NCBI GenBank assembly: GCA_045807945.1
Contig: JBJMGI010000092.1
Coordinates: 22,028-86,027 of the forward strand
Source: Terriglobales bacterium
GTDB taxonomy: Bacteria; Acidobacteriota; Terriglobia; Terriglobales; Acidobacteriaceae
Length of the DNA stretch: 64,000 nt
Direction of reading: 5' to 3'
Positions 40,011-50,821 of the stretch are shown one piece after another (position 1 is the stretch's first letter; each line of letters starts with the position of its first letter). The notes under the pieces are model-generated. The model was not told where the DNA came from, ran no database searches, and saw nothing but the letters and a program-made list of their open reading frames with translations. A program made the position numbers and the translations under genes.

Positions 40011-42854
40011 TTACTTGCCCTCGGCGATCTCCTTCAAAGCCGTGCTGCAGCGCTCGCATACCGTCGGATACTCCGTATCTTTACCGACTTCGGTAGAGTA
40101 AGTCCAGCAGCGCTCGCACTTGGTGCCATCGGCCTTCGCCACCCGGATCTCAAGGGGTGAGTCGCCGTTGGCGGCCTCAGCGCGTGTCAGTTTGACGCGC
40201 GAAACGATAAACAGTTCGCGCAGGCCGGCCGCGTGCTTCTGCAGCGTGGTGAACAGATTACCCGAAGCGAGCAGCTCGACCTGGGCTTCGAGGCCGCTCC
40301 CGATCACCTTATCTCTGCGTAGCGGCTCAAGCGCCAGCATGACCGCCTCGCGGGTTGCGACAAGCTGCGCCCACTCCGACCGGACCACAGCGCCACGATC
40401 GTCGCCAACTTCGCCCCCAAGAACTTCATTGCGCTTCCAAAAAGTTGAAAGGTGAACGCTCTCAGGCCGGGCAGACAATTGCGGCATCATCTGCCAGATC
40501 TCGTCGGCGGTATAGCTCATTAGCGGCGCCATTGCGCGCACTAGTGTCTCCCCGATCCGCCAGAGCGCGGTCTGCGCGGACCGCCGCCCGCGCGAATTTG
40601 GAGCCGCGGTGTAGAGCCGGTCCTTCAGCAGGTCGAAGTAGATAGCGCTCAAATCGACAACACAGAATTCGTTGGCCTGGTGATAGACCTTGTTGAACAG
40701 CCGGGCCTCGTACCACTCTGCGATTTCGTCGTTCAGGTCACCCGTCCGCACCAGCATCGCCTGGTCCACAAATTCCATCTGGTCGAAGGCGACTGCATTC
40801 TTCGCCGGATCGAAGTCGCTCAAATTCCCGAGCACATACCGGAATGTGTTCCGCAGCTTGCGGTAATTCTCAGCGACGCGGTTCATCAGCTCCTCAGACG
40901 AACGGCTGTCTTCGCGATACTCAACCGAAGCAGCCCACAAACGAATGATCTCCCCGCCGAGCCTCTTCGCGATCGCATCCGGATCGACGGCGTTGCCCTT
41001 AGACTTATGTTGCGCCTGACCTTGTGGGTCCAGTGTCCATCCATGCGTCGTGACTTCACGGAACGGTGCTTTGCCGCGCGTCCCGACGGCGCACAGCAGG
41101 GAAGACTGGAACCACCCGCGGTACTGGTCGCCACCTTCGCTGTACAGGTCTGCGGGCCAGGGAAGATCTTTCTCATGCCCCAGCACGGCCGCGTGGCTCG
41201 AGCCTGATTCGAACCAAACGTCGATGATGTCCATCTCTTTCCGGAACTCTTTGCCACCGCACTTCGCGCACTTCGTTCCAGCAGGAAGGATAGAAGCTGC
41301 GTCGTGGCGGTACCAGGAATCCGCGCCTTCCTTCGCAAACAGCTCGACAACTTTGCGGTTTACTTCAGGCGAGCGGAGCAATTCGTTGCACTTGCGGTCG
41401 GTACAGAAAAATACCGCGATGGGAACTCCCCAGATGCGTTGCCGCGAGATGCACCAATCCGGACGCGTCTCGACCATGTTGCTGATGCGCAGCTCGCCCC
41501 ATTCCGGGTCCCACTTTACTTTCTTGATCTCGTCGAGCGCGCGCGAGCGCAGCGTGCCGCCTTCCATCTTCCCGTCCATTGCGATGAACCACTGCTCGGT
41601 AGCGCGGAAGATCACGGGATTATGGCAGCGCCAACAATGCGGATAGGAGTGCTCGATCTTTTCGTGCCCGAGCAGAACGCCTCGTGCCTTCAGCAATTCG
41701 ACGATCGGCTCGTTGGCTTTGAAGACGGTCTTGCCGTCGTACTCCGGCAACCCGTTATGGATCCGCCCGGCTTCATCAACGTTCACCTTCTGGTCCAGCC
41801 CATACTTCGCGCCAGTGTAGAAATCATCTGCGCCATGCGAAGGTGCGGTGTGCACGGCGCCCGTGCCCTGATCGGTGGTGACGTAATCCGCCAGGACGCC
41901 GAGGATCGAACGGTCGAGAAAGGGATGCGCGAAGGTCGAGCGTTCAAGTTTCCGTCCCTTGAATCGCGCGATCTCTCTCGCGTCAGTCAGGTTGCATTTT
42001 TCTTTTGTGGCTGCTGCGAGTGCGTCGGCGACGATATAAACCTGCCCACCACTCTCCAGCGCCACATACTCCAACTCCGGATGGAACGCGACCGCCATCG
42101 ACGCGGGAAGCGTCCAGGGTGTGGTCGTCCAGATAATGGTGTTCACTTTTTTGCCGGCGAGAGCGGAATCCAGCTTCGCCGGATCGCTAGTGAGAGCGTA
42201 TTTCACCCAGACGCTTGGGCTGGTGTGGTTCTCGTACTCGACTTCAGCTTCTGCCAGCGCTGTCCTATCGTGGATGCACCAATAGACCGGCTTCAGCCCT
42301 TTGTAGACGAATTCTTTCTCGAGGAACTGGAAGAACGTTTGCGCAATGACTGACTCATACTGCGCCGACATCGTGAGATATGGATCGTCCCACCGACCGA
42401 GCACACCTAGGCGTCGAAACTGCTCACGCTGCAGATCGACATATTTCTCCGCGTACTTCCGGCACTCCTGACGGACCTGCAAGGGATCCAGCTCCAGCTT
42501 CTTGCGGCCGAGCGACTCGTCAACCTTGATCTCGATGGGCAGGCCGTGGCAGTCCCATCCGGGAACGTAGGGAGCATCAAAGCCCGCCATCGTCTTGGAT
42601 TTAACGACGAAATCCTTCAGGCATTTATCCAACGCCGTTCCCAGGTGGATAAGGCCGTTGGCATAAGGAGGGCCATCGTGCAGCACGTAGATGGGCTTGC
42701 CCGCACGCGACTCGCGGATCTTGTAGTACAGGCGCATCTCGTCCCAGCGCGCGAGCGTTTTCGGCTCGTTCACGGGCAGGTTGGCCTTCATGGCGAAGTC
42801 GGTCTTAGGAAGGTTCAAGGTCGACTTCAGATCGTCGCGGACGGGGGCGCTCAT
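40011..42854 (-). CDS. ileS: Isoleucine--tRNA ligase
   Basis: PPYANGLIHLGTALDK (HIGH region), WCISRQRIWG, a KSKGN (KMSKS-like) motif, and a C-terminal CxxC...CxxC zinc knuckle. ATG at 42854, with GGAG 6 nt upstream. Confidence 0.95.
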   Translation of the reverse strand: MSAPVRDDLKSTLNLPKTDFAMKANLPVNEPKTLARWDEMRLYYKIRESRAGKPIYVLHDGPPYANGLIHLGTALDKCLKDFVVKSKTMAGFDAPYVPGWDCHGLPIEIKVDESLGRKKLELDPLQVRQECRKYAEKYVDLQREQFRRLGVLGRWDDPYLTMSAQYESVIAQTFFQFLEKEFVYKGLKPVYWCIHDRTALAEAEVEYENHTSPSVWVKYALTSDPAKLDSALAGKKVNTIIWTTTPWTLPASMAVAFHPELEYVALESGGQVYIVADALAAATKEKCNLTDAREIARFKGRKLERSTFAHPFLDRSILGVLADYVTTDQGTGAVHTAPSHGADDFYTGAKYGLDQKVNVDEAGRIHNGLPEYDGKTVFKANEPIVELLKARGVLLGHEKIEHSYPHCWRCHNPVIFRATEQWFIAMDGKMEGGTLRSRALDEIKKVKWDPEWGELRISNMVETRPDWCISRQRIWGVPIAVFFCTDRKCNELLRSPEVNRKVVELFAKEGADSWYRHDAASILPAGTKCAKCGGKEFRKEMDIIDVWFESGSSHAAVLGHEKDLPWPADLYSEGGDQYRGWFQSSLLCAVGTRGKAPFREVTTHGWTLDPQGQAQHKSKGNAVDPDAIAKRLGGEIIRLWAASVEYREDSRSSEELMNRVAENYRKLRNTFRYVLGNLSDFDPAKNAVAFDQMEFVDQAMLVRTGDLNDEIAEWYEARLFNKVYHQANEFCVVDLSAIYFDLLKDRLYTAAPNSRGRRSAQTALWRIGETLVRAMAPLMSYTADEIWQMMPQLSARPESVHLSTFWKRNEVLGGEVGDDRGAVVRSEWAQLVATREAVMLALEPLRRDKVIGSGLEAQVELLASGNLFTTLQKHAAGLRELFIVSRVKLTRAEAANGDSPLEIRVAKADGTKCERCWTYSTEVGKDTEYPTVCERCSTALKEIAEGK

Positions 42855-43062
42855 CAATTCTCCGGGTGCTCTTCCATTATAGGGTGACGCTAAAAGAAGC
42901 GTCCACGAGCCGAGGTGAGTTGGGATTGTGGTGGTCTGAATGTAACCCGGAATACCACTCTTGGCATCTGAACACGTAGCGCGTGAATCGGTCCTTTGTT
43001 AAATCGCGGCAAAAAATGCGCGAAATCCAAGAGCAGAAAAGCTTCTGGCTGTAGGAACCGCT

Positions 43063-43079: not shown

Positions 43080-43140
43080 CTTATTGGAACAGAGTTGCAA
43101 TGCACCTCTGGGTCGAACCTGGAAAAGGCCACATAGGGTT

Positions 43141-44160
43141 ATGTCAAATCGGGCTGTTATTACTCCCTTGGAAGAATCCTCCCCCGTCAGCAACATTCGG
43201 CGTGACGCGCTATTTAGCGACGTATTCACCTCAGAATGGTCGCTGTGGGATTCCCTCAAAGAAAACGTTCGCTCCGTCGTAAAGCCGGAAAAACTTCCGC
43301 CGCTCAAGCTGACGTCGCGTCCCGTGAAAGTCCGGGAGATTTGGGGTCAGTCGCAACGCCCCAAGACGGCTGCAGTAGGCTCGCTGATCGCGCATGGCTT
43401 GTTCTTTGGATTGATCGCCTTCGCGCTCATGCAGCCGGCGAAGCAAACTCCTCAAGAACCGCCTAAGCAGGTGACGCATCTCGTCGCTCCTCCGCTCAGC
43501 GACTACATGCCCATGCAGCAGGACCCCGGGCCGGCGATGTCCGGTGGCGGGGGCGGTGGTGACCATGACATCGTGCAGGCTCCCAAGGGTAAGCTCCCTA
43601 AGGTTTCGCCGGTGCAGATCACTCCTCCGGTTGTGATCACGCGTAACGATGCGCCAAAACTTCCGGTGGAACAGACCGTAGTTGCTCCTCCGAAGGTGAA
43701 TCTCCCTAACGCCAGCATGCCGACGATCGGCGACCCGATGGCGAAGCTCGCAGGTCCTCCCTCGAACGGAGTCGGTTCGAGCGCTGGAATCGGCGCAGGC
43801 TCTGGCGGCGGTATCGGTAGCGGCGCAGGCGCAGGTCTTGGACCGGGCAGCGGCGGTGGATTCGGCGGCGGAGTGTACAAAGTGGGTGGCGGAGTTTCCG
43901 CGCCCCGTCTCCTCGTCTCACCGGATCCGGAGTACTCGGAAGAAGCTCGTAAAGCAAAGTATCAAGGCACAGTCGTAGTTTGGATGATTCTTGGTCCCGA
44001 TGGGCGTCCGCAGAAGTTGAAAATTCAACGCGCTCTCGGCATGGGTCTGGATGAGAAGGCGCTCGAAGCGGTGAAGCAGTGGCGCTTCGAACCGGCCAAG
44101 AAAGACAATCAGCCCGTAGCCGTGGCCATCAGCGTGGAAGTTAACTTCCACCTCTACTAA
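43141..44160 (+). CDS. tonB: TonB-family energy transducer
   Basis: N-terminal TM anchor, a Pro- and Gly-rich spacer, and the C-terminal TonB domain YSEEARKAKYQGTVVVWMILGPDGRPQKLKIQRALGMGLDEKALEAVKQWRFEPA. Confidence 0.8.
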   Translation: MSNRAVITPLEESSPVSNIRRDALFSDVFTSEWSLWDSLKENVRSVVKPEKLPPLKLTSRPVKVREIWGQSQRPKTAAVGSLIAHGLFFGLIAFALMQPAKQTPQEPPKQVTHLVAPPLSDYMPMQQDPGPAMSGGGGGGDHDIVQAPKGKLPKVSPVQITPPVVITRNDAPKLPVEQTVVAPPKVNLPNASMPTIGDPMAKLAGPPSNGVGSSAGIGAGSGGGIGSGAGAGLGPGSGGGFGGGVYKVGGGVSAPRLLVSPDPEYSEEARKAKYQGTVVVWMILGPDGRPQKLKIQRALGMGLDEKALEAVKQWRFEPAKKDNQPVAVAISVEVNFHLY

Positions 44161-44225
44161 GTTCCGCTAAACGGCGGTCAGATTCTTCGCAGTACTTAAC
44201 CGAGTCGAGTCGAAGAACGCAGAAG

Positions 44226-44260
44226 GGAAGGCGCGAGCCTTCCTTTTTTGTTTTGTTTTG
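44226..44260 (+). terminator. Intrinsic terminator after tonB
   Basis: GGAAGGC-gcga-GCCTTCC followed by TTTTTTGTTTTGTTTTG. Confidence 0.6.
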
Positions 44261-44262
44261 CT

Positions 44263-44790
44263 TTACAGACCGCCGCCTGCCCGCTTCGCCTGTACACAGC
44301 ACTCGCCTTCCGGGATCGGACTCCCGTGGGGACACGTGCGCGGGTGTTGCAAAAAGGTACAAATGCGTTCGGTAGCTTGCGCTGACAAGATGTGCTCGAA
44401 CTTGCACGCCTGCTGCTCGATCTCAGCTTCGCTCTCGATGTGCAGCGTCTCCGTAAAGAGCTTCTCCGCTAACCGGTGCCGCCGGATGACCTCGCTTGCG
44501 CGCTGGCGCCCACGCTCGGTAAAGTCCACCGTGAAGCGCCCGTGCTCGGGAAGAGGCCCCGAAGCCTGCATCGCCTCGTGACAGCGGTTCAGGATTTCTT
44601 TGTGCGTGTGCGGCTCAGACGACTGGTGGTCCGCCAGGGTCAACAATCCCATGTCGGCCATCTTCTCGATCGCCATATCTACCGGCAACGCACCGTCTAC
44701 CTGGATGCGGCCCATGTCCGCGACTTGACCGTTCTCTTTCACCACCCAAATTTCTTCCAGGATCTCATCGAACTCTTCTTCGTCTGAGAA
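44263..44790 (-). other. DtxR-like domain portion of the ATPase fusion
   Basis: Equivalents of the DtxR metal ligands are present: H79/E83 (RRHRLAE) and C102/E105/H106 (ACKFEH). H98 is replaced by Glu. The putative wHTH segment has few basic residues. Confidence 0.6.
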
Positions 44791-45471
44791 GGAGAAGATC
44801 TCCTGCGCCGAGATCTTTCCATGATGCAGCTCGATGCGTCGGTCAGCAAGACGCGCAACCGTGGGATCGTGCGTCACCATCACGATGGTCCGCCCTTGCT
44901 CGTGGAATTCACGCAGCAAGCGCAGGACGATCTCTTCGTTCCGCGCGTCCAGGTTCCCGGTGGGCTCGTCGGCAAGCACGATAGCGGGATCGTTGATCAG
45001 CGCTCGCGCTATGCACACACGCTGCTGCTCGCCCCCCGAGAGATGCGCAGGAATGTGGTGTGCCCGGTCCTTCAGCCCCACACGCCGCAAGGCTTCGAGC
45101 GCTTCGGCTTCGTCGGTCATACTGTGGAAGTACTGCGCCAGCATCACGTTCTCGAGCGCGGTGAGGTACGGGATGAGATGGAATTGCTGAAAGATGAACC
45201 CGATCTTTTCCGCGCGGAAGCGGTCGAGCTGCTTGCGGTCGAGCGCGGCGACGTTCTCCCCATTTAGCCAGACCTCGCCTGAGCTCGGTCGGTCGAGGCA
45301 TCCGATCAGATTCACGAGCGTGGATTTTCCCGAACCCGATGGCCCCATGATCGAGACCCACTCGCCTTTTTCGATGGTCAGATCGATCGCGTCGAGCGCG
45401 CGGATCACGCCACCATCGCCGTCAGATTTCGCGGGATAGGTCTTGCTCACGTTTTTTATCGCGATACCCAT
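44263..45471 (-). CDS. ABC transporter ATP-binding protein fused to a C-terminal DtxR/MntR-like metalloregulator module
   Basis: aa 1-225: Walker [19 protein letters not shown], Walker B IVLADEPTGNLD, VTHD. aa ~228-402: EILEEIWVVKENG..., RRHRLAEKLFTETL, ACKFEH, and TCPHGSPIP, which is the DtxR-family helix / metal-site / CPHG pattern. Confidence 0.8.
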   Translation of the reverse strand: MGIAIKNVSKTYPAKSDGDGGVIRALDAIDLTIEKGEWVSIMGPSGSGKSTLVNLIGCLDRPSSGEVWLNGENVAALDRKQLDRFRAEKIGFIFQQFHLIPYLTALENVMLAQYFHSMTDEAEALEALRRVGLKDRAHHIPAHLSGGEQQRVCIARALINDPAIVLADEPTGNLDARNEEIVLRLLREFHEQGRTIVMVTHDPTVARLADRRIELHHGKISAQEIFSFSDEEEFDEILEEIWVVKENGQVADMGRIQVDGALPVDMAIEKMADMGLLTLADHQSSEPHTHKEILNRCHEAMQASGPLPEHGRFTVDFTERGRQRASEVIRRHRLAEKLFTETLHIESEAEIEQQACKFEHILSAQATERICTFLQHPRTCPHGSPIPEGECCVQAKRAGGGL

Positions 45472-45479
45472 GCGTCAGT

Positions 45480-46571
45480 TCATTCGCCCTTCAAGATTAC
45501 CGCAGGCTGCGTTTGGCTCAGCAGCGCCATCGGGATCAGCGCCGCCAAGATCGTGAGAGCGATACTGCCAACGAGCACCATCGGGAAAACATCCCATTGC
45601 GGAAGCACGACCGCCTGAAAGTTGAATCGCCCGATCAGGAACGCAACCGCGATGCCGAGGCAAAATCCGAGCACCGCGCCCGCCGCCCCGAGCAACGTGG
45701 CTTCACATGCAAACAGTGCGCTTGCAAGTTGCGGTGAAGCGCCGAGGGCCTTCATAACGGCGAAGTCTTTTCTGCGGTCGAGGACCGAGCTGGTCAAGGT
45801 CGCCAACACGCAGAGCGCTGAAATGACAATGATGATGATGACCGCGATCAGTAACGTCGAGCGCGCTTTCCCGAAGACCTTCGCTTCAGCTTCTGTGATT
45901 TGCTTGATGGGGCGCACATAGGCGCCGGGAAGAGCCGAAGCCAGCGAGTTCACAAGCGCGCTTACATCCTGCGGCTTACGGTCGGCGGCGATCTCGATCG
46001 TGTCCGCCCCAAGACCCGTCCAGGCTGTGAAATCCTCGAGTGGCATGTAAATGCGACTGTCTTCCGTGCTTCCGGTCAGCAGGATCCCAGCCTGACGCAC
46101 GGTGATTCTCTTTCCACGGAATTCAAGAGAGAGATCGCCTTTGCCAAACTGCTTCGCTGCACGCGAGCCCAACAACGCCTTCCCATGTTCCGGCCATGAA
46201 CCTACCATCCAGAACGGGTCGATTTTCCGAGTTCGCTGCACGTCGAGGCCGCCGACCACCACCGCCTGGCCGTTCGCCTTCGCGATCACGTATCCGAACG
46301 GCGCGGCCGATTCACTAGCACCAAGCTGAGCATCCACCTTGTGCAAAGCGTCGGCTGGAAGCGTCGCGTCAGCCTTAGAGGTAATGATCAGGTTCGCGCC
46401 GTATCCCCGAAAATCTCCGCGCAGCTTCGCTTGGACATCCGTAAACAGAGTAAGCATGGCTGTGGCTGCCGTGGCCGCCACAACCACAGCGAGCACCGCG
46501 ATGGCGGAGCTTCCGCGCCTCACGATCAGCGGGCGCAGCAGCACGCGGAAAAACATTCTGCTGCGGCTCAT
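45480..46571 (-). CDS. FtsX-like ABC transporter permease
   Basis: 363 aa: N-terminal TM, an extracytoplasmic domain, and a C-terminal FtsX 3-TM module (DFAVMKALGASPQ...). Confidence 0.8.
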   Translation of the reverse strand: MSRSRMFFRVLLRPLIVRRGSSAIAVLAVVVAATAATAMLTLFTDVQAKLRGDFRGYGANLIITSKADATLPADALHKVDAQLGASESAAPFGYVIAKANGQAVVVGGLDVQRTRKIDPFWMVGSWPEHGKALLGSRAAKQFGKGDLSLEFRGKRITVRQAGILLTGSTEDSRIYMPLEDFTAWTGLGADTIEIAADRKPQDVSALVNSLASALPGAYVRPIKQITEAEAKVFGKARSTLLIAVIIIIVISALCVLATLTSSVLDRRKDFAVMKALGASPQLASALFACEATLLGAAGAVLGFCLGIAVAFLIGRFNFQAVVLPQWDVFPMVLVGSIALTILAALIPMALLSQTQPAVILKGE

Positions 46572-47833
46572 TGGCTACCTCGCAGCACGTGCGCCGGATC
46601 AAGCCGCACCGCGCGGCGAATAGAGGCAATCGAACCGCCATAGGTAACCAGAAATGCGACAGCCAGCACAATAGGGAAGAGCACCGGCTGCAAGCTGATG
46701 CTGGAGTTGAAAATGCTGCGTCCGATCTGCGCAGCTAAAACTCCACCCAGAGCAAACCCGACTACGCCGCCGATGGTTGCGAGCACTCCTGCCTCGGTCA
46801 TGAACAATGCGGCGACGGACGAGTTATCGGCTCCCATCGCCTTCATCAGCCCGACTTCGGTACGCCGCTCCATTATCGCTGTCGCCATAGCCGCCGAAAC
46901 CGCAAGCGCCGCTGCACAGAGCGCAGCGATAGTGATCAGCAGCATCAAACCCTTTATCCGGTTCAGGATTTTGCCTTCGTTCTGTGCGACGCGGCGGATC
47001 TGCTCGGCGTGGGCATTCGGGATCACCTCTTCGATCTGGTGCGCGATCGAGAGCGCGTAAGGAGAGCAGTACCAGCGGTCGTAAGCCGGACCTTTTAGGG
47101 TTCTCGGATCGGTGCGCGCGAACGCATCTTCCGGCTTCGTGACCGCGCTCACCAGGATGCTTCGGACGACGCCCGGCTTTCCGGCGATGTCTTGCGCCAA
47201 CGTAAGTGGGCCGACCACCGCATCTTCCTCGCCCGCTCCCGTCCTGAGGACTCCAGCGACCGTGAGCTGACGCCCGGCGACGGTGAGTGCATCGCCCGGC
47301 TTCACGTTCAAGCCTTGCGCGAGCCTTGCACCGACTAAAACCCTCTGCGAATCGTCAGCTGGCCATTCGCCTTGAACTTTCCACCAGGGGCTGGTCTTGG
47401 TCACGCCCTCGACGAACTCGTCTTTTCCGTAGCGAAGCTGCTTGGCGAAATATGTCCCGATCAGTTCGACATTGCGCGATTCTGCGCCGGATCGAGCTTG
47501 AACGCTCGTTGAGAGGAACGGAGCGAAGCCGCGGATGTTATTGCGCCAGAAAATCCCTTTGATCTTGGGAAGCTCGGCCTCGTTAAGATAAGCGCCCTCG
47601 CTAGCTGGCTTGATGTTCACTCCGCCCACATTCAGATCGAGAGTGTCTTCCTGCGGGACAACCGAGATGTTCGCGCCAAAGCTACGCAGCTCTTCACTGA
47701 CCTTATCGCCAATGTCGGTTGCAATCGCGATCGTCGCGGTCGCGACCGCGACGCCCAGCGTGATCGCGACGGCGGCCATCAGCTTGCGGCGACGTTGCAA
47801 CCGGAACGATTGATAGATCAACCGTAGGAACAT
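46568..47833 (-). CDS. FtsX-like ABC transporter permease
   Basis: 421 aa with the same architecture (EVGLMKAMGADNS...). 4-nt overlap with the downstream permease gene. Confidence 0.8.
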   Translation of the reverse strand: MFLRLIYQSFRLQRRRKLMAAVAITLGVAVATATIAIATDIGDKVSEELRSFGANISVVPQEDTLDLNVGGVNIKPASEGAYLNEAELPKIKGIFWRNNIRGFAPFLSTSVQARSGAESRNVELIGTYFAKQLRYGKDEFVEGVTKTSPWWKVQGEWPADDSQRVLVGARLAQGLNVKPGDALTVAGRQLTVAGVLRTGAGEEDAVVGPLTLAQDIAGKPGVVRSILVSAVTKPEDAFARTDPRTLKGPAYDRWYCSPYALSIAHQIEEVIPNAHAEQIRRVAQNEGKILNRIKGLMLLITIAALCAAALAVSAAMATAIMERRTEVGLMKAMGADNSSVAALFMTEAGVLATIGGVVGFALGGVLAAQIGRSIFNSSISLQPVLFPIVLAVAFLVTYGGSIASIRRAVRLDPAHVLRGSQ

Positions 47834-47835
47834 GA

Positions 47836-49083
47836 TTATTTCGTGAAGTGGACCGCTGCCGTTTGCAGGTCAGCCTGCTCAATGACCACTGCGTCTCGGC
47901 TCTCGCTCGAATGCAGCGGGATCGGATTGCAGCCGCCGCTCTGTCCGACCGTTTGCGGATTCACCGGGGCCGCGCAGTTCTTGCAGACCAGTCCTTGTGC
48001 TGTCTTGTAATAGCCGACGGAGCCGCAGATCTCGCATGCATCGAGGACGGTTGCAATTTTCCCATCCGGCTTCTGGTAGAGCAGGAAGCGCACCTCGGTC
48101 CCATTCACCTTGGCCGCATAGCGGTGCAGGTCGCCGTCTGAGACTTGCGATTTTGGAATCGATGCCTTTCCGTCTACGAACGTGAGTTCAGTCGCCGGTG
48201 AGAGGGAAGTGGTGCTCTTCGCATAAACGAACTCAGCCGTGACCGAAGCTATGAAGATGAAGCACGCGACGCAAACCGAGATCATCCATAGGCGCTCGCG
48301 GCGGAAGCTCCACTCCGCTTTGCGCTGCTCGGCCTTGCTCTCAGCGCTAGGCAACGGAGCACGCCGGCGGTATTCCAGCAGGATCATCATCCCCGTCAGC
48401 GCAAGAATGGTCACGGCAAAGAACCAGTCATTCCGCACGATGGGTCCGATGGTCGCCATTTCAGCTTTGTTCGAGGGGATTACGCCGTTTTCCGACAACT
48501 CGTGCAGACCTGTGACCAGAAGCTGCGCGGCAACGAAGAAGAGGATGACTGTCGTGATCTTAAAGAACTTGCGCAGGTCGATGCGGACGCTGCCTTTGAC
48601 GAACATCACGCCGAAGACCACCGCGAGCGCGACTCCAATCAGCGTGCCTAAAAAGCGCAGCAGCTCGCTGGTGTTGAAGCTGACAGTGGCGAGGATCAAG
48701 ACCGTCTCCACGCCCTCGCGAAGCACCATAAGGAAAATGAAGAAGAAAACACCGATTCGTGATCCCGTTGTTGCCAGGCCGCCCAGCTTGGTCTCGATGC
48801 TGCCCTTCATCGTCTTGCCCGCCTTCATCATGAAGACGACCATGGAGGCGACGAACGCAGCCGCGGCCAGCATCACCCAGCCTTCGAAAATGTCCTGGTT
48901 CCACTCCCAATGGGAGATTACCACCGCCACCGCCAGGCTGCCTACGAAGGCGCTGCCCAGCGCCCAATAGACCAGTTTGCGCAGTTCGGGACGCCGTATC
49001 TTAGAGAGATAAGCCAGGGTGATGCCGACGATGAGAGCAGCTTCCACCCCTTCGCGGAGGGTGATGATCAGGGCTTGCAGCAT
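47836..49083 (-). CDS. FTR1-family iron permease fused to a DUF2318-like Cys-rich domain
   Basis: Two REGVE motifs (TLREGVEAALIVG and VLREGVETVLIL), equivalent to the REXXE iron-permease motifs. The C-terminal 130 aa read CEICGSVGYY...CKNCAAPV...GGCNPIPL. Confidence 0.8.
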   Translation of the reverse strand: MLQALIITLREGVEAALIVGITLAYLSKIRRPELRKLVYWALGSAFVGSLAVAVVISHWEWNQDIFEGWVMLAAAAFVASMVVFMMKAGKTMKGSIETKLGGLATTGSRIGVFFFIFLMVLREGVETVLILATVSFNTSELLRFLGTLIGVALAVVFGVMFVKGSVRIDLRKFFKITTVILFFVAAQLLVTGLHELSENGVIPSNKAEMATIGPIVRNDWFFAVTILALTGMMILLEYRRRAPLPSAESKAEQRKAEWSFRRERLWMISVCVACFIFIASVTAEFVYAKSTTSLSPATELTFVDGKASIPKSQVSDGDLHRYAAKVNGTEVRFLLYQKPDGKIATVLDACEICGSVGYYKTAQGLVCKNCAAPVNPQTVGQSGGCNPIPLHSSESRDAVVIEQADLQTAAVHFTK

Positions 49084-49091
49084 AGATGTTT

Positions 49092-49122
49092 GATATTGAA
49101 AATGAAATTCATTTTCAATATC
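49092..49122. promoter_or_regulatory. Perfect 31-bp palindrome, Fur-box-like operator
   Basis: GATATTGAAAATGAA-a-TTCATTTTCAATATC, with 15-bp arms. The central 19 bp, GAAAATGAAATTCATTTTC, match the E. coli Fur consensus GATAATGATAATCATTATC at 15 of 19 positions. It lies between the -10 box and the ATG of the FTR1 operon. Confidence 0.6.
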
Positions 49123-49123
49123 T

Positions 49124-49153
49124 ATCTTACTCGCCGCTGCGCGTTTCCGTCAA
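49124..49153 (-). promoter_or_regulatory. Predicted sigma-70 promoter of the FTR1 operon (TTGACG-N18-TAAGAT)
   Basis: On the minus strand, -35 is at 49153..49148 and -10 at 49129..49124. The predicted TSS falls inside the palindrome. Confidence 0.45.
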
Positions 49154-49197: not shown

Positions 49198-50148
49198 GTG
49201 CGCGTCACCGTTGCCAGTACTATTTCGGAAGTTGAACGGCTTCGGCCGCTCTGGGATGAGCTCTTGAGGGAAAATAGAGCGACGATCTTCCACAATCTCG
49301 ACTGGAACCTGCTCGCCCTGCGTACGTTTACAGAAGAGAAGCCATACTTTGTTGCGGTTGAACTCGAATCTTCCGCCACCATCATTCCCGTCGTTGTTCG
49401 TGATCGTGAGATCCGCCTCGCCGGCGGCCCGCTCTTTGACTACCGCGACGTCCTCCACACCGGAGATGACGATTCCTTTAGGCTCGGTCTTGAAAAAGTC
49501 GCTGAGCTCGAGTTGCCTTGGAACATTCAGGGCATTCGCGCCGAGGCCGCACACTCGCTGTGGGCTATCCCAAGTCAGCCGTGGACATCAGCACCGTTCG
49601 TCTCGCTTCGGAATGTTTCCGCAAAGGAGTTTGCAGAAAAGCACACACGCTCTCGACGCGCGCTCCGTCGCCTAGCAGATCTCGGCGCTTCCGTCAGAAT
49701 GGTCCCCGCCATGCCCGAACTCATCGAGCAGCTCTATCGCGAGAAAGCAAAGGAACCTGCGGGATTTGGCCAGAATGTTTTCCAGGATTCGCGTTGCGTC
49801 GCCTTCATGCGCAACGTCGTCTCTCTTCCGCTGACGCACTGCGATGTCTTCTTAATGGAGGCTGCGGGTCAGCGCATCGCCGCCCTGATAACCTTTCGCG
49901 ATCGGGAAGTGCGCCGCTTCTATACCACCTGGATGGACCAGCGCTGGAGCAAGCACTCGCCCGGAGTCGCTTTGCTCTACCATGCCGCTTGCGAAACGCT
50001 TGCAGCCGGCCTCAATTGCGACTACATGACGGGTGAGCAGCCGTACAAAATGCGCTTCGCGACCGGAAGCGTTCCTCTCTACAGACTGGAGTGCAGCTCC
50101 GCAGAGCTTCGCGCTTGTCTCGCACCCGAAGAAGCTAGAGCCGCTTAA
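49198..50148 (+). CDS. GNAT-like acetyltransferase (CelD/BcsL / FemAB-like family)
   Basis: 316 aa, GTG start. The N-terminal LRPLWDELL...FHNLDW and the overall layout resemble the CelD-type family. This is from memory, with no catalytic motif verified. Confidence 0.55.
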   Translation: MRVTVASTISEVERLRPLWDELLRENRATIFHNLDWNLLALRTFTEEKPYFVAVELESSATIIPVVVRDREIRLAGGPLFDYRDVLHTGDDDSFRLGLEKVAELELPWNIQGIRAEAAHSLWAIPSQPWTSAPFVSLRNVSAKEFAEKHTRSRRALRRLADLGASVRMVPAMPELIEQLYREKAKEPAGFGQNVFQDSRCVAFMRNVVSLPLTHCDVFLMEAAGQRIAALITFRDREVRRFYTTWMDQRWSKHSPGVALLYHAACETLAAGLNCDYMTGEQPYKMRFATGSVPLYRLECSSAELRACLAPEEARAA

Positions 50149-50821
50149 GAAAGGCCTTCGCTTTCTCAAGCTCTGGGAAAAGGTTCTCTTCTTGTATGAA
50201 TGCCTTGGGATGCACGCAGCGGCGGCTTCCGCGCAGCTTCACCGGATGCTTGAGGTGCAGCATCTCGTGATAAACGATGTACTCCACCGCATACCGCGGC
50301 ACGTCCGCCCTGTCGAATAGCCGGCTGATCACGATGGTGTTGTGTGCTGGGTCGTAATGTCCAAGATTGCTGCGAGAATCGTTTCCGCTCCAGGTCAAGC
50401 GTGGCTTACCCAGCAATCCGTAGAAAAATTGCTTATTGAGATCGTCGAAGATCTCATCCAAGTCGAACGTGTGTCCCTGCGCCGAGACAATGTGTTTTCG
50501 CCCGCGCATCTGTCGGACCAGGTGAGCTTTTCGGCTCAGGTCATGACTGCTGACGTACTTTCGGTAGCGCGAGGCATGTGCCGCATTGATCGGCTTGCGA
50601 TATAGCTTCGCTAAGAGAATATGCGCAATGGAATGGTGCACACTCTCCGGCGCGCCCTCCAGCAGGTCAGACAATCGCACCAGCACCAGCCCATTGCGCA
50701 GACGGATAGTGTTATTGATATTCGCGAAGGGGTAAAAGCTCACGCGGAAGCCGGGCATTTCGGCGCGCAGCCTCAACTCGCGATAGGTATGCTGGAAGAG
50801 TTCGTGGAGTCCGCCGCTCAC
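50135..50821 (-). CDS. HExxH zinc-metallopeptidase-like protein (SprT/DUF45-like)
   Basis: YHEMLHLKH motif near the C-terminus. 228 aa, no signal peptide. Confidence 0.55.
   Translation of the reverse strand: MSGGLHELFQHTYRELRLRAEMPGFRVSFYPFANINNTIRLRNGLVLVRLSDLLEGAPESVHHSIAHILLAKLYRKPINAAHASRYRKYVSSHDLSRKAHLVRQMRGRKHIVSAQGHTFDLDEIFDDLNKQFFYGLLGKPRLTWSGNDSRSNLGHYDPAHNTIVISRLFDRADVPRYAVEYIVYHEMLHLKHPVKLRGSRRCVHPKAFIQEENLFPELEKAKAFLKRL

Follow-up and report, generated by a model that had tools for sequence, protein, structure and literature searches.

A DtxR-like module on the ATPase of an FTR1-type iron-uptake operon in Terriglobales: a putative cytoplasmic metal sensor

What does a domain resembling a metal-dependent repressor do when it is attached to an ATPase? 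The question is raised by a gene in a stretch of 64,000 nucleotides from a Terriglobales bacterium (assembly GCA_045807945.1, contig JBJMGI010000092.1, positions 22,028 to 86,027), which is referred to as the window in the following. The gene is the last of an operon that starts with an FTR1-type iron permease gene, and it encodes an ATP-binding cassette (ABC) ATPase with a long C-terminal extension. A first-pass annotation, made from the letters and the list of open reading frames (ORFs), had read this extension as a DtxR/MntR-like module recruited to switch the transporter off when cytoplasmic metal is sufficient. The features of the window that are discussed are listed where they are first needed, beginning with the gene itself.

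44263..45471, minus strand: whole gene for the ABC ATPase with DtxR-like module, 402 amino acids (aa), final gene of the operon (ORF list; Pfam ABC_tran and Fe_dep_repr_C; homologues)

The ATPase-module gene is one uninterrupted ORF with its stop codon at 44263-44265, and residue 228 starts at position 44790. The coordinates given in the first-pass annotation are exact, and all strings quoted in it (HHGKISAQE, EILEEIWVVKENG, ALPVDMAIEKMADMGLL, RRHRLAEKLFTETL, ACKFEH and CPHGSPIP) are present. In the 402 aa protein, Pfam assigns residues 26-171 to ABC_tran with an E-value of 4.6e-36. For comparison, 42 full-length fusion proteins with 65-96% identity were aligned; all counts of alignment columns given below refer to this set of homologues.

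Based on sequence profiles and a predicted structure, residues 225-402 were confirmed as a two-domain DtxR/IdeR-like module on a complete ABC ATPase, as had been proposed. Fe_dep_repr_C (PF02742) matches residues 318-388 with an E-value of 2e-25 and 89 bits (cut-off 27), and the same family was matched by all 22 modules checked, which were drawn from three fusion clades. When the tail was compared with all PDB sequences using phmmer, IdeR and DtxR were the top matches (IdeR 1b1b, E 5.5e-14), and the family profile reached an E-value of 1.5e-18 against the PDB. The AlphaFold2 model of residues 225-402, calculated with 43 homologues, has a predicted local distance difference test score of 88.5 and a predicted template modelling score (pTM) of 0.85, and it predicts that the 178 residues beyond the nucleotide-binding domain (NBD) fold independently. 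The structure search suggested in the first-pass annotation assigns the DtxR fold: top matches of the module in a Foldseek comparison with the PDB were solely IdeR, DtxR and MntR-type chains. Two-domain IdeR/DtxR structures were matched with an E-value of 2e-8, a probability of 1.0 and target-normalised template modelling scores of 0.77-0.83 over about 158 columns. The module contains a winged-helix domain as well as a dimerisation domain. The third (SH3/FeoA) domain is absent, the protein ending at residue 402.

44296..44535, minus strand: metal-binding and dimerisation domain, residues 313-392, with H332, E336, C356, E359 and H360 (PF02742, IdeR alignment, invariance)
44734..44799, minus strand: linker 225-229 and helix alpha-1 (residues 230-246) of the DtxR module (AlphaFold2 secondary structure; E. 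coli MntR alignment; column counts)

The metal ligands known from this family are largely retained. The HMMER alignment to DtxR equates H332 with H79, E336 with E83, C356 with C102, E359 with E105 and H360 with H106, and these five ligands, which had been named from the sequence before, turned out to be invariant. The sixth, H98, is replaced by E352 as had been stated, but this glutamate is not a conserved feature, since the position is occupied by Glu in 34 and by Ala in 8 of the 42 sequences. Helix alpha-1 contributes the invariant residues D235, E236, E239, E240, W242 and E246. For the ligand positions in this helix, E. coli MntR (K-12 record) was aligned to the module, and the segment D235-E236-I-L-E239 fell on the MntR segment D-D-Y-V-E. 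The latter segment holds the ligands D8 and E11 in Bacillus subtilis MntR, and the first of these corresponds to M10 of DtxR. Ligating residues that are invariant in the 42 homologues occupy all six positions known from the binuclear site of MntR (D8, E11, H77, E99, E102 and H103, here E236, E239, H332, C356, E359 and H360). They include the primary-site positions M10, C102, E105 and H106 of DtxR. The site is of mixed character, with a DtxR/IdeR-like Cys at the C102 position and MntR-like carboxylates in helix alpha-1.

A divergent site was observed in the third of the fusion clades (P0146, L084:5665-6870), in which a His is found at the E236 position and an Arg at the H332 position. Between NBD and module, P0146 additionally has a Cys-rich stretch (CPLVNTGDCC). 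Judged from these residues, the metal site may have been rebuilt differently in this clade.

44629..44784, minus strand: degenerate winged-helix half, residues 230-281, including the recognition-helix equivalent 260-276 (GALPVDMAIEKMADMGL) (fold kept; no PF01325 match; charge)
44536..44628, minus strand: wing insertion of 31 residues, 282-312 (alignments; low model confidence here)

The DNA-binding half of the module differs from that of the known repressors. According to the Foldseek comparison of the AlphaFold2 model, the winged-helix fold is retained. Neither PF01325 nor any other helix-turn-helix (HTH) model of Pfam matched the module at E ≤ 0.1; across the 22 modules from three clades, 21 gave no match to PF01325 and one gave a match at E 0.092. 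The positive control, E. coli MntR, was found by PF01325 (E 9e-11) and by a dozen further winged-helix models. In the N-domain (residues 230-281 and 313-317), 3 Lys/Arg stand against 16 Asp/Glu (net charge -13), compared to 9 and 9 (net charge 0) in the same region of MntR. Residues 227-281 have a mean net charge of -10.5 in the set of 42 homologues, with a range from -15 to -6. DtxR's own N-domain is mildly acidic. Net charge alone is no proof of lost DNA binding, and the MntR control and the count of basic residues were therefore used in addition.

The recognition-helix segment contains a single basic residue, K270, which bears out the earlier remark that this segment has almost none; R255 and K/R270 are the only conserved basic residues of the N-domain. 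In a weak alignment anchored on the conserved M-x2-G-L-L motif, the position of the base-reading Gln43 of DtxR is occupied by Met, Leu or Ile, the Ser42 position is variable and the Arg50 position is mostly Glu, Ser, Asp or Gln. In the models, the insertion of 31 residues separates one wing strand (277-281) from the other (313-317). The doubt about DNA binding that had been raised earlier is well founded on these results, and sequence-specific DNA binding by the module is unlikely, as far as can be judged from its residues.

44800..45471, minus strand: nucleotide-binding domain of MacB/LolD/FtsE type, residues 1-224 (NCBIfam; Foldseek; invariant motif columns)

The ATPase half is complete. Its catalytic motifs do not vary among the homologues: Walker A (GPSGSGKS), Q-loop, signature (LSGGEQQR), Walker B (LADEPT) and H-loop (H201). 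The best NCBIfam models are MacB, LolD and FtsE, and in the Foldseek search the nearest structures (E 8e-24 and below) were the ABC domain of MacB (E 8e-24, 44% identity), MJ0796, LolD, FtsE, HrtA and YbbA. On the basis of these matches, the ABC part is assigned to the type VII, mechanotransmission class (MacB/LolCDE-type), as an accessory to the FTR1 permease. The connection to the module is short: in the AlphaFold2 secondary structure, linker 225-229 lies between the last NBD strand (219-225) and helix alpha-1 (230-246). No low-complexity linker was found between NBD and module, and the tether measures only about 4 residues, without an obvious cleavable spacer.

44296..44361, minus strand: extra invariant Cys/His cluster C371, H376, C380, H382, C391 and C392 (C-x4-H-x3-C-P-H-G-x7-CC) (alignments)

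Two conserved additional His/Cys clusters were overlooked by the first-pass annotation. One is located in the wing insertion, where H282, H288, H290, C297 and H298 are invariant (H-x5-H-x-H-K-x4-R-C-H); this insertion is confined to the Terriglobia clade and absent in the P0184 and P0146 clades. All residues of the other one, near the C-terminus, are unchanged throughout the three fusion clades and in the 33 stand-alone relatives that were aligned. Canonical DtxR/IdeR are without this cluster; as far as the alignment reaches, the counterparts of H376, C380 and H382 in IdeR are N, S and F. Three roles are conceivable for the residues involved, namely a structural Zn site, an iron-sulfur (Fe-S) site or an ancillary site that has been rebuilt.

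The stand-alone relatives were obtained from an exhaustive search of 1.84 billion representatives, which yielded 2856 matches; 33 cluster representatives from among the nearest free-standing ones were aligned. They share the motif C-x14-C-x4-H-P-x2-C-P-H-G-x7-CC, and 28 of the 33 have a FeoA/SH3 domain. Since the Cys/His motif is shared and PF01325 is missing in these proteins, the module is assigned on sequence grounds to a distinct Cys-rich DtxR subfamily, from which it derives and whose head was already atypical. The free-standing Cys-rich proteins form a large subfamily and may not be classical repressors either. Examples are P0174, P0170 and P0203 (L085:24-722, L086:413-1177 and L087:75-773), which show the motif C..GHP..CPHG.PIP.G.CC. 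The partial ORF that follows P0174 had no Pfam match; the contigs of P0170, P0174, P0203 and P0152 are just 1-1.6 kb long and gave no informative gene context. The same Cys-rich DtxR domain was also seen in P0214, a fusion of Fe_dep_repr_C, FeoA and FMN_bind domains (434 aa). A combination of a transketolase-like part with Fe_dep_repr_C and FeoA was observed in P0228 (428 aa), possibly as an artefact of gene calling.

47836..49083, minus strand: FTR1 iron permease and FtrD-like/DUF2318 Cys-rich domain in one protein (FetM and FetA equivalents) (Pfam, NCBIfam; syntenic in 75/80 loci)
46568..47833, minus strand: permease 1, MacB_PCD and FtsX, FetB-like (Pfam; syntenic in 76/80 loci)
45480..46571, minus strand: permease 2, MacB_PCD and FtsX, FetC-like (Pfam; syntenic in 79/80 loci)
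44221..44248, no strand assigned: GC-rich hairpin, predicted terminator, between the convergent ATPase and tonB genes (terminator-like scan: 12-bp stem and T-run)

The operon comprises four genes in the order FTR1-FtrD, permease, permease, ATPase, with a divergent GNAT gene on one side and a convergent tonB gene on the other. The product of the first gene matches the Pfam families FTR1 (E 3.7e-33) and FtrD-like (E 3.3e-30) and the NCBIfam model EfeU. Genes for P19 (FetP) or thioredoxin (FetE/F) were not found in the four-gene operon by ORF list and Pfam, the locus alone being covered.

The same fusion was found in many other genomes by a search of the kind suggested in the first-pass annotation. 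A word-indexed protein search returned 3444 proteins with the tail, of which the best 120 are all of about 400 aa and combine ABC_tran with PF02742. When one genome per species was searched, at least 593 genomes encoded a relative; the 80 matches listed were used as related loci, and all 80 belong to Acidobacteriota/Terriglobia. A single tblastn segment covers both halves in 79/80 of these loci. An artefact of gene fusion or assembly was considered and rejected, the single ORF being kept in 79/80 loci. The order FTR1_FtrD, permease, permease, ATPase is found in 75/80 loci, and the exceptions are cut by contig ends. A second fusion clade with proteins of about 360 aa that lack the wing insert occurs in Polarisedimenticolia and other Acidobacteriota (858 matches). 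The third, divergent form is P0146, and both these clades sit in the same FTR1_FtrD-FtsX-FtsX-ATPase cassette. In public databases the proteins are labelled only generically, e.g. as 'ATP-binding cassette domain-containing protein'.

The surroundings of the cassette are more variable. The GNAT (Acetyltransf_6) gene at 49198-50148 (plus strand) is divergent to the operon and lies between it and a conserved HExxH gene at 50135-50821. A GNAT homologue stands at the same place in only 2/80 related loci, so that it looks like a local insertion. On the other side, a gene with a TonB_C domain (43084-44160, plus strand) is convergent to the ATPase gene, and ileS (40011-42857, minus strand) comes next. 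The tonB-ileS neighbourhood is found in about half of the related loci (43/80 and 38/80), with no sign of operon membership.

49092..49122, no strand assigned: perfect 15-1-15 palindrome, putative Fur-box-like operator, between the -10 element and the operon start codon (inverted repeat)
49124..49153, minus strand: sigma-70-like promoter TTGACG-18-TAAGAT, directly upstream of the palindrome (consensus scan only; weak)

A candidate site for transcriptional control of the operon is located upstream. The palindrome at 49092-49122 is unique in the window, where none is expected by chance, and ends 8 nucleotides (nt) ahead of the FTR1 start codon. Its core TGAAAATGAATTTCATTTTCA agrees with the extended classical Fur box at about 16 of 21 positions. 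No resemblance to the DtxR/IdeR box was seen, and the assignment as a DtxR box was rejected in favour of a Fur-like one. Promoter-type matches in the region are as frequent as expected by chance. The exact operator core is present in just 2/80 loci; with a palindrome finder applied to upstream regions, the near-identical core TTGAAATTGAAATTCATTTTCAA was detected ahead of the FTR1 gene in about 60/72 loci.

In a minority of loci (L011, L032, L035, L057, L077 and L084), the Fur-like TGAAATTGAAATTCATTTTCA box upstream of FTR1_FtrD is replaced by another palindrome, of the type GTTGCAAC-N3-GTTGCAAC or AGTTGCAAATCATTTACAACT, which suggests, from the sequences of the repeats, a different or divergent specificity of the repressor. 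In the second, short-form clade, a fur gene is located directly upstream of the FTR1 gene (L081, L082/L083), either 4-8 nt ahead of FTR1_FtrD or overlapping with it (L081:2377-2892, L082:2687-3223). A dedicated Fur paralogue appears to be part of the operon in this clade. Boxes of the same hexamer style, AATTGAGATTGAGTCTCAATT and GAGATTGAGACTCGATCTC, precede the in-operon fur gene in the sister clade. Transcriptional control thus seems to be separate from the module and to be exerted via a putative Fur-type operator. With a putative Fur-type repressor acting on the operon, the DtxR module would be free to serve another purpose.

In DtxR, IdeR and MntR, helix alpha-1 is connected to the dimerisation domain through the primary site, and metal bound there drives a conformational change. 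Domain 2 of DtxR is the dimerisation domain. MetN, ModC and MalK are ABC ATPases with C-terminal regulatory domains that pair beneath the NBDs. By analogy with both groups, we consider it moderately probable that the module is a cytoplasmic metal sensor which regulates the ATPase post-translationally, Fe2+ inhibiting ATP hydrolysis in a metal-dependent manner. For this reading we infer that metal is bound and which metal it is, that the module dimerises on this protein, and in which direction the ATPase responds; the last of these is guessed by analogy. Fe2+ is the favoured metal, since the operon encodes FTR1 under a Fur-like box and the site contains a DtxR-type Cys. Mn2+ is a possible alternative.

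An ABC transporter has two ATPase subunits and domain 2 of DtxR is a dimeriser, so the two modules of the ATPase dimer should pair beneath the nucleotide-binding domains. Rising cytoplasmic Fe2+ would bind to E236, E239, H332, C356, E359 and H360, perhaps also to the extra Cys/His clusters. Helix alpha-1 is four residues away from the last NBD strand, and its metal-driven movement could therefore be passed straight to the ATPase. Bound metal would lock the module and alter the spacing or closure of the NBDs, which would lower ATP hydrolysis. The result would be a quick post-translational feedback on iron uptake, with a Fur-type repressor at the palindrome as the slower transcriptional layer. 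For the wider proposal, that the DtxR-derived module senses Fe2+, possibly also Fe-S or redox status via the extra clusters, and gates the type VII ATPase of FTR1-dependent uptake, we see roughly even chances.

Several results weigh against this proposal. The full-length model has a pTM of 0.51, and its inter-domain geometry is unreliable. The DtxR ancillary site is incomplete, as H332 and E336 are kept while H98 is exchanged for Glu or Ala and both ligands from the SH3 domain are absent. The degenerate head is also found in the nearest stand-alone relatives (0/33 match PF01325); it must be older than the fusion, and taken alone it is no evidence of an adaptation to the fusion. Finally, the role of the type VII ABC part in the Fet system is unclear (PMC10783030), so that the target of a shut-off is undefined.

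The module could instead act as a transcription factor, released or tethered in the manner of YtgC-YtgR, so that a metal-dependent DNA-binding dimer, cleaved or still attached, represses the operon or other genes. For such an arrangement there is a published precedent: the Chlamydia YtgC-YtgR protein is a fusion of an ABC subunit with DtxR, is cleaved and binds DNA with Fe2+, and similar fusions are reported in 11 phyla (PMC5599777). The overall winged-helix fold, the conserved R255 and K/R270 and the perfect palindrome upstream of the operon would suit it. We nevertheless regard it as very improbable, since PF01325 and other HTH models fail on the module while many match the MntR control, and since the N-domain has a net charge of -13 and 3 basic residues, a hydrophobic residue at the Gln43 position and an interrupted wing. 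The palindrome, too, is Fur-box-like (about 16/21 positions of the classical box) and unlike the DtxR/IdeR box, a fur gene lies directly ahead of the cassette in sister clades, and a linker of about 4 residues has no obvious cleavable spacer.

Two further explanations were considered. The module might handle metal, as a chaperone or buffer that takes Fe2+ from FTR1, or serve as a scaffold (constitutive dimer clamp, docking of FTR1-FtrD) without any regulation of the ATPase. The invariant acidic surface residues D235, E240, E246, E249, E252 and E269 are suited to cation handling or to docking of a basic partner, each chain has three potential metal sites, the fusion strictly co-occurs with FTR1-FtrD, and domain 2 of DtxR is generally known to dimerise. 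We still find this unlikely, because the ligands retained are exactly those of the DtxR/MntR allosteric site that couples the NBD-tethered helix alpha-1 to domain 2, and because the Campylobacter-type Fet system works with an unfused ATPase (PMC10783030), the module being dispensable for the core function. A sensor of redox or Fe-S status that works through C371, H376, C380, H382, C391 and C392, and in Terriglobia also through the His/Cys wing insert, would complement the Fe2+ sensor rather than replace it, as the canonical Fe2+/Mn2+ site is fully conserved too. The cluster is, moreover, equally compatible with a structural Zn site, and as an explanation of its own we consider this one quite unlikely, even though four extra Cys and two His without a DtxR/IdeR counterpart are conserved in fusion clades and stand-alone relatives. 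It would resemble FeoC, whose Cys-rich wing carries an O2-labile [4Fe-4S] cluster on the partner of a Fe2+ transporter (bioRxiv 10.1101/2022.02.26.482101), and a dependence on redox has been suggested for the Fet system (PMC10783030).

If true, the Fe2+-sensing reading would describe the first metal-sensing regulatory domain of DtxR fold on an ABC ATPase and a post-translational iron brake, in which the fold of a transcription factor is re-used as an allosteric domain. Excess Fe2+ is toxic, so that iron uptake needs a quick shut-off; the bacterial control of iron known to us is almost wholly transcriptional (Fur, DtxR). The module is found in hundreds of species of the Acidobacteriota, a phylum that is dominant in soil and poorly studied. 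It would also single out the FetBCD-type ABC machine as the point at which FTR1-dependent uptake is regulated, and provide an experimental handle on the role of this machine.

Compared to DtxR, IdeR and MntR (PDB 1fx7, 2isy, 7b1v, 1bi0; E. coli MntR), the module shares the two-domain fold and the primary/binuclear ligand positions, and it retains the motifs RRHRLAE and C-x2-EH along with the PxG-PIP turn. It differs from them in being fused behind an ABC ATPase and in its acidic head, which is invisible to Pfam and lacks the base contact of the Gln43 type. Unlike DtxR, it has no SH3 domain, a variable H98 position, the extra Cys/His cluster and, in Terriglobia, the His/Cys wing insert.

The first-pass annotation had likened the module to the C-terminal domains of MetN (C2/NIL), ModC (TOBE/Mop-like) and MalK. 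This holds for the architecture, a complete NBD with an added C-terminal domain. In the trans-inhibited forms of these ATPases, that domain can dimerise beneath the NBDs and bind a substrate-related cytoplasmic ligand, to which the module may be analogous. The likeness does not extend to the regulatory fold, which is DtxR and not ACT-like (NIL) or TOBE/Mop, and MetN chains align with the fusion protein only through the NBD (root-mean-square deviation 11-12 over about 360 columns). Nor does it extend to the machine: MetNI, ModBC and MalFGK belong to the type I importer class, which uses a substrate-binding protein, whereas the system described here is predicted to be a type VII machine with MacB_PCD and FtsX permeases, accessory to FTR1, and not a classical importer.

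In terms of genes, the cassette is a compact version of the Fet cluster of Campylobacter. In Campylobacter jejuni, fetMP-fetABCDEF (cj1658-1665) is preceded by a Fur box and encodes an FTR1 permease together with a membrane protein of the DUF2318 type, two permeases and an ATPase (PMC6083913). The genes fetB, fetC and fetD are each required for growth when iron is limiting, although what the ABC part transports and which role it has are unclear (PMC10783030). FTR1, a DUF2318/FtrD-like part, two FtsX-type permeases and an ATPase are common to both. Unlike in Campylobacter, FTR1 and DUF2318 form one polypeptide here, the operon has no P19 or thioredoxin genes and the ATPase carries a DtxR module; a DtxR tail on FetD is not mentioned in the Campylobacter Fet papers (PMC6083913, PMC10783030).

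The re-use of DtxR-like parts on a Fe2+ transporter is also seen in FeoC and FeoA, the latter having the SH3-like fold of the third DtxR domain. FeoC, a small winged-helix protein whose wing binds a metal cluster, attaches to the cytoplasmic domain of the Fe2+ transporter; its partner is FeoB, and not a proven DNA target (bioRxiv 10.1101/2022.02.26.482101). It differs in being a separate single-domain protein, in having no DtxR dimerisation/metal-binding domain and in its partner, a GTPase and not an ABC ATPase.

The closest published likeness in architecture is YtgC-YtgR (CT069) of Chlamydia trachomatis, in which a C-terminal DtxR-like domain with conserved metal ligands is located on a metal-uptake ABC subunit (PMC5599777). 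There, YtgR is fused to a TroC-type membrane permease, has a recognisable DtxR HTH, is released by proteolysis and represses transcription (PMC5599777), whereas the partner in the present case is a soluble ATPase, the HTH is degenerate and transcription is under putative control by Fur. The earlier remark that no described example with a DtxR fold was known to its author is therefore too broad; it stands for a fusion to the ATPase with a head that probably does not bind DNA, as no description of an ABC ATPase-DtxR fusion was found in open-access papers and preprints. Taken together, ABC ATPases with regulatory domains were already known, as was an ABC permease fused to DtxR (YtgC-YtgR), and new in the literature covered is a DtxR-fold module that is located on the ATPase, has a degenerate DNA-binding head and is conserved across a phylum.

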